The position numbers were made by a program, and so were the translations under genes. Of a DNA stretch of 64,000 bases, positions 35,901 to 44,900 are shown piece after piece. Each line of letters starts with the position of its first letter. Position 1 is the stretch's first letter. The notes beneath the pieces were generated by a model. The model searched no databases, was not told the origin of the DNA, and was given only the letters and a program-made list of their open reading frames with translations. This DNA comes from Eledone cirrhosa. Its lineage: Eukaryota. The stretch lies in the NCBI GenBank assembly GCA_964016885.1, contig OZ024746.1:2852001-2916000 (forward strand). The letters are read 5' to 3'.

Positions 35901-38900
35901 TATGAAATGACAGAAACTTTCTTCATAAAGTAGCATCTCTGTACAGGCATCAAATAGCTATTCATCATACACACACACATACACTTTTACACACATGCAC
36001 ACACACTTTTACACACATTCACACACACACACATTCACACACACACACATATACACACACACATACACACACACACATACACACACTTAATCTCAAATAA
36101 GTAAAAGTGAGTTCTCTCATGGAGTCTAGTCTAAAGTCTCTCAAGCCAGAAAGTTCATCAGGCCAGTGTTTATCCTAGTTTCATGGCATAAAGTGTCTGA
36201 GAGTACAAGACTTCCCCCTGGACTGGATACCAGTCCATCGCAGGGTTAAATCCCCAGATATTGCTGGTACTCATTTTCAGCAAAGTATACTGGAGCAATG
36301 TGAAATGAAGTGTTTTGCTCAAGAACACAACACACAACCCAGCCCAGAAATCGAACCCACGACATTATTATCATAAATATAACACCCTTACCACTAGGCC
36401 ACATACCTCCATGGTGTAGAACTGTAAATTATAGAGAAGAGGCTATTTTTAAGAAGATTTGGCTGTCATTTCTAATTTGTTAGGGAAGTATGTAGAGTCT
36501 CCAACATTGTCACAAGTACTTGTTAGGAAAGTATGTAGAGGCTACAATATAGTACTTGTTAGGATGAGAAGGAAATTTCATCTACAGCGAGATTTGAAAT
36601 ATTTAGCAACAAAAATATCTTCATTGTATTTCTTTATTAGGTTGTGGAAATAGACTTTTGGTAGTGAGCCGTTTTTAACTTGTTGCTGTCATTGAGTTGT
36701 TTAAAAGTGTCTGTCTTGTATCTTATAGCTGTGAAAGGATTTGTTCCAAAAAGTATCCTGTCACAATCCAATGTTGGTGGAGATGAAGAGAACCATAAAG
36801 AGGTCACAGAACACCATATTTATGCAGAGATTGAGCTGGCAACCAACAAAACCTCTTGTGAAGATTGGCGCCACGTCTATGAACAAACTGTAGAAACAGA
36901 GTCTGACCTTCGCCTTCTCCCTCCCACACCAGCACCTCTCGCACATGATGAGGTCAGTCAAATGTTTTGTACTTTGTATGTATTGTAGTGTTGTTATTGT
37001 TTGCAATTTTGGGGAACTTAATAACACAGATCTCTTATTACCAGCACCAAATTAACACAAACCCGTCATATGTATGTGTAAGTAGTAAGTATATATCTAT
37101 ATATATATATATATATATATATATATCTATCTATATATATATATATATATATATATATCTATATATATATATATCTATATATATATATATCTATATATAT
37201 ATATATCTATATATATATATATCTATATATATATATATCTATCTATATATATATATATATATATATATATATATATATATCTATATATATATCTATATAT
37301 ATATCTATATATATATATATCTATATATATATATATCTATATATATATATATCTATATATATATATATCTATATATATATATATCTATATATATATATAT
37401 CTATATATATATATATATCTATATATATATATATATCTATATATATATATATATCTATATATATATATATCTATATATATATATATCTATATATATATAT
37501 ATCTATATATATGTATATCTATATATATATCTATATATCTATCTATATATATATATCTATATATATATATATATCTATATATATATCTATATATATCTAT
37601 ATATCTATATATATATATATATCTATATATATCTATATATATATATATATATCTATATATCTATATCTATATATATATATCTATATATATATATATATCT
37701 ATATATATCTATATATCTATATATATATAGATATATATATATCTATATATATCTATATATCTATATATATATAGATATATATATATATAGATATATATAT
37801 ATATATATATATATATATATATATATATATATATAGATATATATATATATATATATATATATATATATATATATAGATATATATATATATATATATATAT
37901 ATATATATATATATATATATATAGATATATATATATATATATATATATATATATATATATATATATATATATAGATATATATATATATAGATATATATAT
38001 ATATAGATATATATATATATATAGATATATATATATATAGATATATATATATATAGATATATATATATATATAGATATATATCATCATCATCATTTTACG
38101 TCCGCTTTTCCCTGCTTGCAAGGGTGGGACATATATATATATATAGATATATATATATAGAGATATATATATATATATATAGATATAGATATATATATAG
38201 ATATATATATAGATAGATATATAGATATATATATAGATATATATATAGATATATATATAGATATATAGATATATATAGATATAGATATATATATATATAT
38301 ATATATATATATATATATATATATATATATATATATATATATATATATATATATATATATATATATATATATATATATATATATATATATATAGAGAGAG
38401 AGAGAGATATATATAGATATATTTCTTTATTAGCCACAGGGGCACAAAAGAAGGGGACAAATACAAAGGGGGAAGTTTACATACAATAAAAACGTGTAAA
38501 AGATAGATAGATAGATATGTTTCTTTTATTTGCCACTAGGGCATCAAAAGTGGGACAAGTACAAAGGGGGGAGTTTACACAAAAAGGCGTCCTCAATAAG
38601 GAGGAGGCAATAACAAAATATAAAAATAAAATAAGATATAACAAAAAATAAAATTTATAACAAAATCCTCCATAGAGAGGAGACGCCTTGGGGGGTCGCA
38701 CACACCCCCGAAAAAAGTGTGCAACCCTTCTCCTCAGGAGCACAGAGAAGGGGTGCTCCCTTGGTCTTTCATCTTCCTCACCTATAGTCTGATGTAGAGT
38801 GAAGGCCCATTCACACAGGCCATTCTCGCCACTTTCACCCATCTTTCATAGAAACGGCTGGGGTGCAGCACCTCTCTCTCCATCCTGATCCTTCTTCCGA

Positions 38901-41900: not shown

Positions 41901-44900
41901 TAAACGCTCCGCCTTTACCACTGCCAAGGTCCAGAACCACTAGTCGACCCTCCGGGTCCAAATGTACCATCTGTGTTGCGAGACCCAGATGTTTTTGCAG
42001 CAGAACGACAACTCCACCCCCACCTCCGGGCTGACAGAGAGATGCGTGCATCTCAAAGTCATCAAAGGTGGGGGCCAGCTGTCGCACGTTGCTGATCCGG
42101 GCCTCGCAAATAACCATCACATCTATACGTTGTGACCTGAGGTCATTTAGAAGCATTGCTTGCTTCCAAGTTGAGCCCAGGCCACGCGCATTTAAACAGC
42201 CTACTCTTAGCTTAGCCATGTTGGTGGTGAAGAGAAAAGGCACTTACCTCTCTGCGTCCCGGGTATCGGGCTGCACAATTTCCATTAGGGTGGGGGATGG
42301 GTTGTTGGGTGGGGTGGTGGTTTGTGGAAGTGTGGGGGCATCAGTGTGTTGTGTGGTTGGGGAGCTTGGAGTTGTGTGGGTGTTTGGGGAGAGGGTGGGA
42401 TAGTTTTTTAGGAGGACGCGGTTAATGGGCCCGACGAAGGGGGGACCCACGTCCTCTTTAAAATTGTTTTTTAAAGTTTTATAGGTGTCCTGTGGGGCCT
42501 TAATCATTTTGAGGTGGGGGAAATCCCCTGCCTGGGTGAAGTTAGATAGATAGATAGATAGATAGATAGATAGATAGATAGATAGATAGATAGATAAGTT
42601 TCTTTTATTTGCCACTAGGGCATCAAAAGTGGGACAAGTACAAAGGGGGGAGTTTACACAAAAAGGCGTCCTCAATAAGGAGGAGGCAATAACAAAATAT
42701 AAAAATAAAATAAGATATAACAAAAAATAAAATTTTTAACAAAATCCTCAATAGAGAGGAGGCGCCTTGGGGGGTCGCACACACCCCCGAAAAAAGTGTG
42801 CAACCCTTTTCCTCAGGAGCACAGAGAAGGGGTGCTCCCTTGGTCTTTCATCTTCCTCACCTATAGTCTGATGTAGAGTGAAGGCCCATTCACACAGGCC
42901 ATTCTCGCCACTTTCACCCATCTTTCATAGAAACGGCTGGGGTGCAGCACCTCTCTCTCCATCCTGATCCTTCTTCCGAAATGATATCGGAAGAAACGGA
43001 CCAGTTGTTGGCCAGAGAGAAAGGTGCCTGACCTCAGTCCTTTCAGACGCGTCCACCATACAACCTCTTTCGCCATGGCTATTACGCACAGAAACACCGC
43101 CTCTGCTTCATCTTTGAAGGGGGGAGGCGGCTTGATCATTACAATAGACTCGGTGGTCAACCGGATCGGTCCCACCCTTGACAGCAGTTGTTCGACATAG
43201 CCCCACAGATCGGCTACGCCCGAGCAGTGTACCAATGCGTGTGCAACGGTTTCCTCGTCGCACACGCATCTGGGACAGATCTTTTTGGCGGGGTCCCTAC
43301 CCGGGCGCCCGTGTCTGTAGAGCCTTTCTCGAACGGGTAAAGCCCCTCGGTAGCACTGCCAGGCCAGGGACTTCTGGAAGTTGTCCATAGGTCCCGGGCT
43401 GAATGTCCTACCGCACAGGCTGGCCAGTTCGTCCTCCTCCATGTCTAGGGCTTCTCCGAGGGCGTCGTCGCACCTGCTGCGTACCAGCCCTCTATAGAAT
43501 GTTGCGGTGGAGTCTCCACTGATAACCGGATCCGCCTGCCAGAGGGCAGTGAGCGCCTGGGCACACTCAGTGTGCCAGGCGCCCAGTTTTCTCGGTCTTT
43601 GCTTGACCCAGGATTGCAGCTCGGTGAGTGAGACGAGTCTGGGAAAGGTTCGTCTCACAAACGAGGCCCACACCGGTTGTCCGGTGAGGAATACGTGGAG
43701 GTGCCGTAGCCTTAATGCGTGTTTACGCATCATTAGCCACGGCATCCCCAGCCCTCCTTTCGAAGGGTGTTGACAGCAGATGGATCTCCTCACCATAGGA
43801 GCCCGCCTCTTCCAAAGATAGATAGATAGATAGATAGATAGATAGATAGATATAGATATAGATATATAGATATAGATATAGATATATATATATAGATATA
43901 TATATATATATATATCTATATATATATATATATATCTATATATATATATCTATATATATATATATATATATAGATATATATATAGATAGATAGATATATA
44001 TATATATATATAGATATATATATATAGATATATATATAGATATATATATAGATATATATATATAGATATATATATATATAGATATATATATATATAGATA
44101 TATATATAGATATATATATATAGATATATATATATATCTATATAGATATATATATATAGATATATAGATATATATATAGATATATATATATATATATATA
44201 TAGATAGATATATATAGATAGATAGATATATATAGAGATATATATATAGATATATATATATAGATATATATAGATATAGATATATATATATATATATATC
44301 TATATAGATATATATATATATATATCTATATAGATATATATATATCTATATAGATATATAAATATCTATATAGATATATATATAGATATAGATATATATA
44401 TATATATATCTATATATATATAGATATATATATATAGATATATATATATATATATAGATATATATATATATATATATATAGATATATATATATATATATC
44501 TATATATATATATATATAGATAGATATATATATATATATAGATATATATATATATCTATATATATATATATATAGATATATATATATATATATAGATATA
44601 TATATATATATATAGATATATATATATATATATATAGATATATATATATAGATATATAGATATATATATATATATAGATATATATATATATATATATATA
44701 TATATATATATATAGATATATATAGATATAGATATATAGATATAGATATATATATATAGATATATATAGATATATAGATATAGATATATATATATAGATA
44801 TATATATATATATATATATATATAGATATATATATATATATATATATATAGATATATATATATATATATATAGATATATATATATATATATAGATATATA

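Follow-up and report, generated by a model that had tools for sequence, protein, structure and literature searches.

Stacked Tx1-like retrotransposons at TATC repeats in the octopod Eledone cirrhosa

An array of three retrotransposon copies between two microsatellites

The window analysed here, a stretch of 64,000 nucleotides (nt) of the Eledone cirrhosa contig OZ024746.1 (positions 2,852,001 to 2,916,000 of the forward strand; assembly GCA_964016885.1), contains a stack of Tx1-like long interspersed nuclear elements (LINEs), which are retrotransposons without long terminal repeats (non-LTR). Three pieces lie head to tail on the minus strand in the same orientation: a 1,221-bp copy, a 4,028-bp copy, and an 80-bp piece, separated by 54 nt and 17 nt of TATC repeat, respectively. 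The array is flanked by two 1.3-kb TA/GATA microsatellites. This arrangement agrees with an earlier note on this DNA, which had described three related head-to-tail copies in one orientation at this place and had interpreted them as a GATA-microsatellite-specific family whose TATC tail recreates its own target.

The long copy (38518–42545, minus strand, as are all the element coordinates that follow) belongs to a family that we designate A; the labels A–F are our own, and A includes subfamilies. It is 5'-truncated at around position 1699 of L055, a natural full-length family-A copy of 5,724 bp, to which it is 99.3% identical. It retains a C-terminal remnant of the first open reading frame (ORF1) of approximately 100 codons (42244–42545), an intact ORF2 of 1,145 amino acids (38782–42219), and a 3' untranslated region (UTR; 38518–38781) with the terminal sequence AATAAAAGAAA followed by CA, without poly(A). 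The short family-A copy (42597–43817) is 5'-truncated at around position 4506 of L055 and ends in AATAAAAGAAA followed by CT; a (TATC)13.5 spacer (42543–42596) separates it from the long copy. The two copies are 99.6% identical: 5 substitutions separate them over 1,220 bp, and the long one terminates in CA where the short one has CT. The third piece (38420–38501) is a 5'-truncated 3' end with the terminal sequence AATAAAGAAA followed by TA, and then TATCTAT. The earlier note had described this piece as a diverged 3' end of approximately 85 bp, related to the two longer copies, but it is identical at 80 of 80 nt to the 3' end of the family-B copy L267 and only 84% identical to family A, so it represents the sister family B and not a decayed family-A copy. 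The 17-nt TATC spacer beside it (38501–38517) is both the 3' target-site duplication (TSD) of the long copy and the 5' flank of the B piece.

In the orientation of the elements, each of the three 3' ends runs into repeat: 17 nt of TATC after the long copy, 54 nt (13.5 TAGA units) after the short copy, and 7 nt (TATCTAT) and then TA after the 80-bp piece. Poly(A) is absent from all three, as the note had observed. The 5' truncation points of both long pieces adjoin repeat, as also noted earlier, and this repeat is TATC with 2–3 nt of microhomology. The left microsatellite (37090–38419, with the flanking tract elsewhere given as 37090–38422; no strand assigned) is TA-rich with interspersed TATC/GATA units, and its C/G-bearing units switch strand at around 37725: TATC lies on the plus strand at 37090–37725 (40 vs 0), and GATA at 37726–38420 (26 vs 3). 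The elements lie where GATA is on the plus strand, the position expected under strand-specific targeting. The right microsatellite (43818–45092; no strand assigned) begins with approximately eight perfect GATA units at the junction and continues as TA with GATA units (81 GATA vs 11 TATC on the plus strand). The whole array is antisense within a predicted host intron of approximately 8.3 kb on the plus strand (36953–45242; GT...AG, phase 0), the splice sites of which are inferred from the sequence; the exon downstream encodes an SH3 domain (Pfam SH3_1, E 1.5e-8).

Target preference in the flanks

The lineage to which these pieces belong is abundant in the genome. A 26-nt 3' motif of family A has exact matches at 4,132 places, and a 30-nt motif of family B was found at 4,749; both counts are lower bounds. 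In total, at least six related families (A–F) were recognized, with ORF2 proteins approximately 75–88% identical to one another, and wherever ends were detected in these copies, the sequence continues into repeat of the TATC or TC type. L262, a candidate for a seventh family, showed no ORF2 match and was counted separately. TATCTAT was found 3–9 nt after 3,138 of the 4,132 family-A 3' ends (76% on each strand). To characterize the 5' junctions, we ordered the family-A matches of contig C1 by position and used 90 of the first 100; four matches situated within the array of a neighbour were omitted, as were the final six, and six junctions were set by hand. The background consisted of 56,894 windows of 34 nt from 20 × 10 kb of C1.

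A TATC 7-mer in the orientation of the element was present at 61 of the 90 5' junctions, and in the opposite orientation at only 1 of 90. The same 7-mer occurred in 0.5% of the background windows, which indicates that the TATC context is not a matter of chance. It was present in 46 of the 72 copies that are 5'-truncated and in 15 of the 18 full-length copies; among young truncated copies, it was found at 18 of 25 junctions, with three more in (TA)n. In the youngest subfamily, TATCTAT lay within 12 nt upstream of 134 of 157 full-length 5' ends on the minus strand (the plus-strand counts overlap and were excluded). The earlier note had reasoned that TATC would be only a tail if most 5' junctions lay in unique sequence; this is not the case, as among the truncated copies 46 of 72 lie in TATC and four more in (TA)n.

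In the 3' flanks of the 90 copies, positions 3–5 read TAT in 88, and the flank began with TATCT in 75 and with TATAT in 11. Poly(A) was found in none, nor did any flank begin with (TC)n or (TTC)n, so the lineage is neither Kibi nor Koshi. TATC was chosen even though (TA)8 is far more frequent in the genome (4.09 million starts, vs 27,717 for (TATC)4, on both strands). Copies located in TACC repeats begin with or continue as TACC (L018, L019, and L165), and elsewhere the 3' flank follows the local TATA. A family of Tx1 elements has been considered target-specific when one sequence type occurs in >20% of its flanks (main text of PMC4494074), and the values obtained here (76% of 4,132 3' flanks and 68% of 90 5' flanks) exceed this threshold. 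The targeting of TATC/GATA proposed in the earlier note is upheld and is strand-specific, and its description as a GATA-microsatellite-specific family needs refinement: the target is best written as TATCTAT, a short core that in many cases is present as one unit within (TA)n and not only in a long (GATA)n tract, and the stacks mix several sister families.

Two recurrent sequences were also observed beside the targets. At L070, L107, L135, L246, L250, L290, and L308, the same upstream flank ends in a short TATC run followed by (TA)n. This flank is another dispersed repeat that supplies TATC targets, several copies of which carry insertions of the lineage and others of which are empty. The 3' flank of L233 and positions 1517–1580 of L279 share an unrelated sequence after the TATC run, which may represent the 5' terminus of a further element associated with TATC.

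Target-site duplication and stacking

Exact TSDs of 10 nt or more that are not pure repeat were found in 22 of the 90 copies. All 22 start 0–2 nt after the terminal GAAA of the element (offsets 0–4 were searched), and in all 22 the 3' repeat matches the 5' flank. In a hand-picked set of TSDs of 8–20 nt, 12 of 12 start at offset 2, with C preceding the TSD in seven; further cases are L003, L037, L051, L062, and L233. Perfect TATC runs were of the same mean length on both sides (18.2 nt at the 5' end vs 18.1 nt at the 3' end, p = 0.68), and 13 copies had a long run only at the 5' end and 13 only at the 3' end. Because the informative TSDs start 0–2 nt after GAAA and the runs are symmetric, the 3' repeat corresponds to the TSD together with the pre-existing tract. 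The target is therefore regenerated by target-site duplication, and seeding by the tail is at most occasional.

The earlier note had favoured another route, in which reverse transcription of a (UAUC)n tail on the element RNA gives rise to new GATA tracts, and these attract further copies. Such seeding would leave many tracts in contact with the lineage, and this is what was found: of the first 30 (TATC)4 matches on C1, 24 touch the lineage, and when these matches were merged, by our count, to 20 loci, 14 touch it. L121 and L127 have a long TATC run at the 3' end and none or an imperfect one at the 5' end, as a templated tail would produce. However, no repeat units were added in any of the 22 informative or 12 curated TSDs, and the symmetry of the run lengths also speaks against such a tail. 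We regard templated tails as a highly improbable general explanation for these tracts, and as an occasional event at most.

Several observations nevertheless do not sit well with duplication at a TATC target. Eight of the 90 copies have >20 nt of TATC at the 3' end and fewer than 8 perfect nt at the 5' end; most of them have imperfect 5' repeats, with L121 and L127 the ones that suit a templated tail. Two or three TSDs (L092 and L232) have a 3' copy that resembles TATC more closely than its 5' counterpart does. When the automatic TSD search was extended to offsets of up to 40, 11 of 20 best hits lay beyond offset 2; these mostly fell in local minisatellites or were TSDs with one mismatch, and the wide search supports neither the TSD register nor a tail. 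As to the target itself, 24% of the family-A 3' ends lack TATCTAT, and 26 of the 72 truncated 5' junctions lack the TATC 7-mer. Four of these 26 are TA-only and several others reflect secondary insertions or deletions.

The stacking seen in the window also occurs elsewhere. A relative in the same orientation was located within 200 bp of 42 of the 90 copies (41 without the unconfirmed L262 family), and no relative in the opposite orientation was found within that distance, which bears out the self-nesting arrays proposed in the earlier note. Some stacks mix families (L265 and L266, the latter with the order A-B-B-A). At L032, L051, and L057, the TSDs include the initial bases of the adjacent element, so the order of insertion can be read.

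A stack could also have arisen in a single event, by template jumping, by a read-through transcript of A and B, or by unequal crossover. The 99.6% identity of the two family-A copies in the window is in keeping with this, as are the tandem pairs of short B pieces that share a truncation point and the several loci at which A is directly followed by a short B end. On the other hand, these A and short-B loci number just seven genome-wide and differ in their B truncation points and spacers, the spacer at L041 carries a local TTTA variant, and the two family-A copies in the window differ at five sites and in the terminal dinucleotide. Together with the neighbour-overlapping TSDs, which record an order of insertion elsewhere, these differences make a single event an improbable source of the stack. 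The narrower idea that A and short B form a co-mobilized unit was rejected on the same grounds, with only 7 loci and differing junctions. The idea that the 80-bp B piece is a distinct mini-element was also discarded, since none of 30 position-ordered B copies is cut there and 167 overlapping matches were obtained, vs approximately 5,000 longer ends.

Short B-type ends occur as tandem pairs, each with a shared truncation point, at C4:88477451 and 88477582, C11:43518275 and 43518373, and C2:158024384 and 158024488. This suggests that the sequence was duplicated locally or that the TSD extends into the element. At L082:1255, a family-A 3' piece is joined directly inside the ORF2 of a relative, without a TATC spacer, possibly by template switching or recombination.

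On a genomic scale, one might tentatively suppose that a hitherto undescribed TATC-specific radiation of at least six Tx1-like families, with approximately 9,000 3' ends counted in two of them, took over most (GATA)n tracts of this genome and increases the number of its own targets through duplication and slippage, such that the GATA class is largely the product of one lineage. We hold this broader extrapolation to be possible and rather doubtful.

Other inserts and repeats were observed in the window. Within the left microsatellite, a 50-bp insert (38082–38131) starts with (CAT)n, and similar short elements ending in (ATC)n lie in a TATG/TA tract at approximately 26225–26325 and 27150–27300; we presume a likeness to the end of an RTE-type short interspersed nuclear element (SINE) that favours (TA)n. 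A 7.4-kb TA/TATG microsatellite (22908–30296) contains several unrelated inserts (approximately 24210–24490 and 26610–27110), none of which matches this lineage; the first includes a near-perfect inverted repeat (24300–24395). Alternating 41-bp and 74-bp minisatellite arrays (46, 5.8, 21.8, and 11.2 copies) occupy 47161–51576.

Classification, mechanism and significance

The family-A element has two ORFs. ORF1, complete in the full-length copy L055 (595 amino acids), contains one CCHC zinc knuckle of the form CX2CX4HX4C (Pfam zf-CCHC, E 0.05 and 0.017, both below the cut-off). A CCHC zinc knuckle in ORF1 is a feature of the Tx1 clade, and it is present here as this single sub-threshold motif. 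ORF2 of the long copy in the window contains an N-terminal apurinic/apyrimidinic endonuclease (APE; PF03372), a reverse transcriptase (RT; PF00078, with YADD at 686), and a C-terminal zf-RVT/CCHC cysteine motif (PF13966, below its cut-off), and its predicted product has catalytic-type motifs. This layout is that of L1-group non-LTR elements, of which variable 5' truncation and TSDs of 8–20 nt, also present here, are further features. Besides the window, 11 of the sampled loci carry an uninterrupted ORF2 that spans the 1,145-residue protein of the window in full. The two bases after the terminal GAAA track the subfamily marks in the 90 copies, indicating that they are encoded by the element and that the element ends there. 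An AATAAA signal was found only approximately 6 nt from the end. The folding of the 3' UTR was weakly above that of shuffled sequences (z −2.0) and was given no evidential weight.

RT trees were constructed from 36–37 rows chosen from approximately 400 fetched proteins; the reference names were automatic annotations, without Repbase references, and the long-branch row P0107 was dropped from the second tree. L1-like rows such as P0103, which matches human L1 with E 2e-149, stood apart from the lineage, and the lineage grouped with YTX2/TX1-named proteins (Shimodaira–Hasegawa-like approximate likelihood ratio test support of 91 for 19 rows and 95 for 24 rows). It formed its own branch and was not nested among these proteins, with a support of 20 for a direct sister relationship to the TX1-named group. 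A tree forcing the lineage with the L1-like rows was 31 log-likelihood units worse (approximately unbiased test, p = 0.07), so this alternative is not rejected. ORF2 is 27–32% identical to TX1-named fish proteins, and its closest named relatives are proteins of Argonauta hians (62–65% identity). The best structural match in PDB was human L1 ORF2p (E 2e-48, vs 4e-19 for R2), an ESM Atlas search returned generic RT/endonuclease clusters only, and two metagenome scans for the flanks of relatives in other species yielded no confirmed locus. The element works like a microsatellite-specific Tx1 element; membership of the Tx1 clade, as the earlier note had assumed, is likely on this sequence evidence.

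We consider it highly probable that the stack in the window represents three insertions of a young, multi-family lineage of Tx1-like LINEs at TATCTAT, whose endonuclease cuts the GATA strand at unit boundaries and whose target-site duplication creates a new target on either side. The anatomy, the strand-specific flanks, the TSDs of 8–20 bp that start 2 nt after GAAA, the absence of poly(A), and the same-orientation stacking of mixed families are the established part of this reading. In the proposed mechanism, the GATA strand would be nicked first, at GATA/GATA. The element RNA, whose AATAAA signal lies so close to the end, would run a few bases into the TATC flank of its own donor, pair with the nicked strand, and prime reverse transcription, by analogy with R2Ol, whose insertion is aided by the pairing of read-through RNA (PMC6530143), and with the identity of 3' end and target that is general in non-LTR elements (PMC3649969). 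Priming of this kind would leave poly(A) uncopied and add no net repeat units. Cleavage of the second strand 8–20 nt away would then produce the TSD, so that later copies would find a new target on either side, and spacers such as that of 13.5 units in the window may have grown by subsequent slippage.

A point that tempers this reading is that recognition by the endonuclease and RNA–DNA pairing are inseparable on the basis of sequence alone. Specificity could be led by priming, if a loose endonuclease nicked AT-rich DNA and only those nicks that pair with a read-through UAUCUAU end were extended. This would account for the same flanks and TSDs, and the near-invariant TAT right after the element end and the 11 copies at TATAT are what it predicts. 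Complementarity is needed for L1 priming (PMC3649969) and is helpful in R2Ol. However, copies in TACC repeats begin with TACC and not TATC, the TSD starts hold one register, and target choice in this clade has been attributed mainly to the endonuclease (main text of PMC4494074). We therefore think it rather unlikely that priming leads, although it is compatible with nicking by a specific endonuclease, and the two are not mutually exclusive.

Similar systems are known in other animals. Kibi and Koshi of teleosts insert into (TC)n and (TTC)n, respectively, and crocodilian Tx1 families into (TTCC)n/(TTTC)n (main text of PMC4494074, which cites Kojima and Fujiwara 2004). The E. cirrhosa lineage resembles them as an APE-type LINE on the Tx1 side of the L1 group that inserts specifically into a pyrimidine-rich microsatellite, and it differs in its target, TATC(TAT) with spill-over into (TA)n, and in its octopod host. 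In SINEU-3/Tx1-Mar, described in the same text, tandem copies sandwich a TSD and have been interpreted as sequential insertions at a regenerated site, as here; their target is a Mariner element, whereas the target here is a microsatellite and the stacks consist of autonomous families 75–88% identical in protein. Togen, which targets (TG)n, and some HERO families (PMC4640811) likewise exploit simple repeats as places where insertion is of little cost, but they have a restriction-like endonuclease and different repeats, whereas the present lineage is of the APE type. In Octopus vulgaris, 80 L1-Tx1 consensus families (56.3 Mb) have been reported, 13 of them recently active (PMC13282606), and the lineage may well be among these annotations; the specificity is undescribed there, as the main text lacks the word "target" and the supplement lacks "target site" and "GATA". 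No TATC/GATA-specific Tx1 element was found in the literature searched, with Repbase, Dfam, and subscription journals outside the search. The main text of PMC4494074 contains no occurrence of "GATA", although its figure labels and supplements may list such a target, and the available text of PMC9115989 does not mention Tx1. Waldo and Dong are further microsatellite-specific non-LTR elements.

It is thus well supported that these copies represent a real target-specific radiation of LINEs, by a mechanism that is not itself new and at a TATC target that we did not find in print. The series of Tx1 targets (TC, TTC, TTCC, and TTTC) is extended to TATC and to a mollusc, at a large scale. Since many young copies have intact ORFs, the specificity of the endonuclease and the read-through of the RNA in priming are directly testable. 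The association of a microsatellite class with one LINE lineage, at 14 of the 20 sampled tracts, bears on the origin of microsatellites and on whether GATA loci can serve as single-copy markers for these animals.

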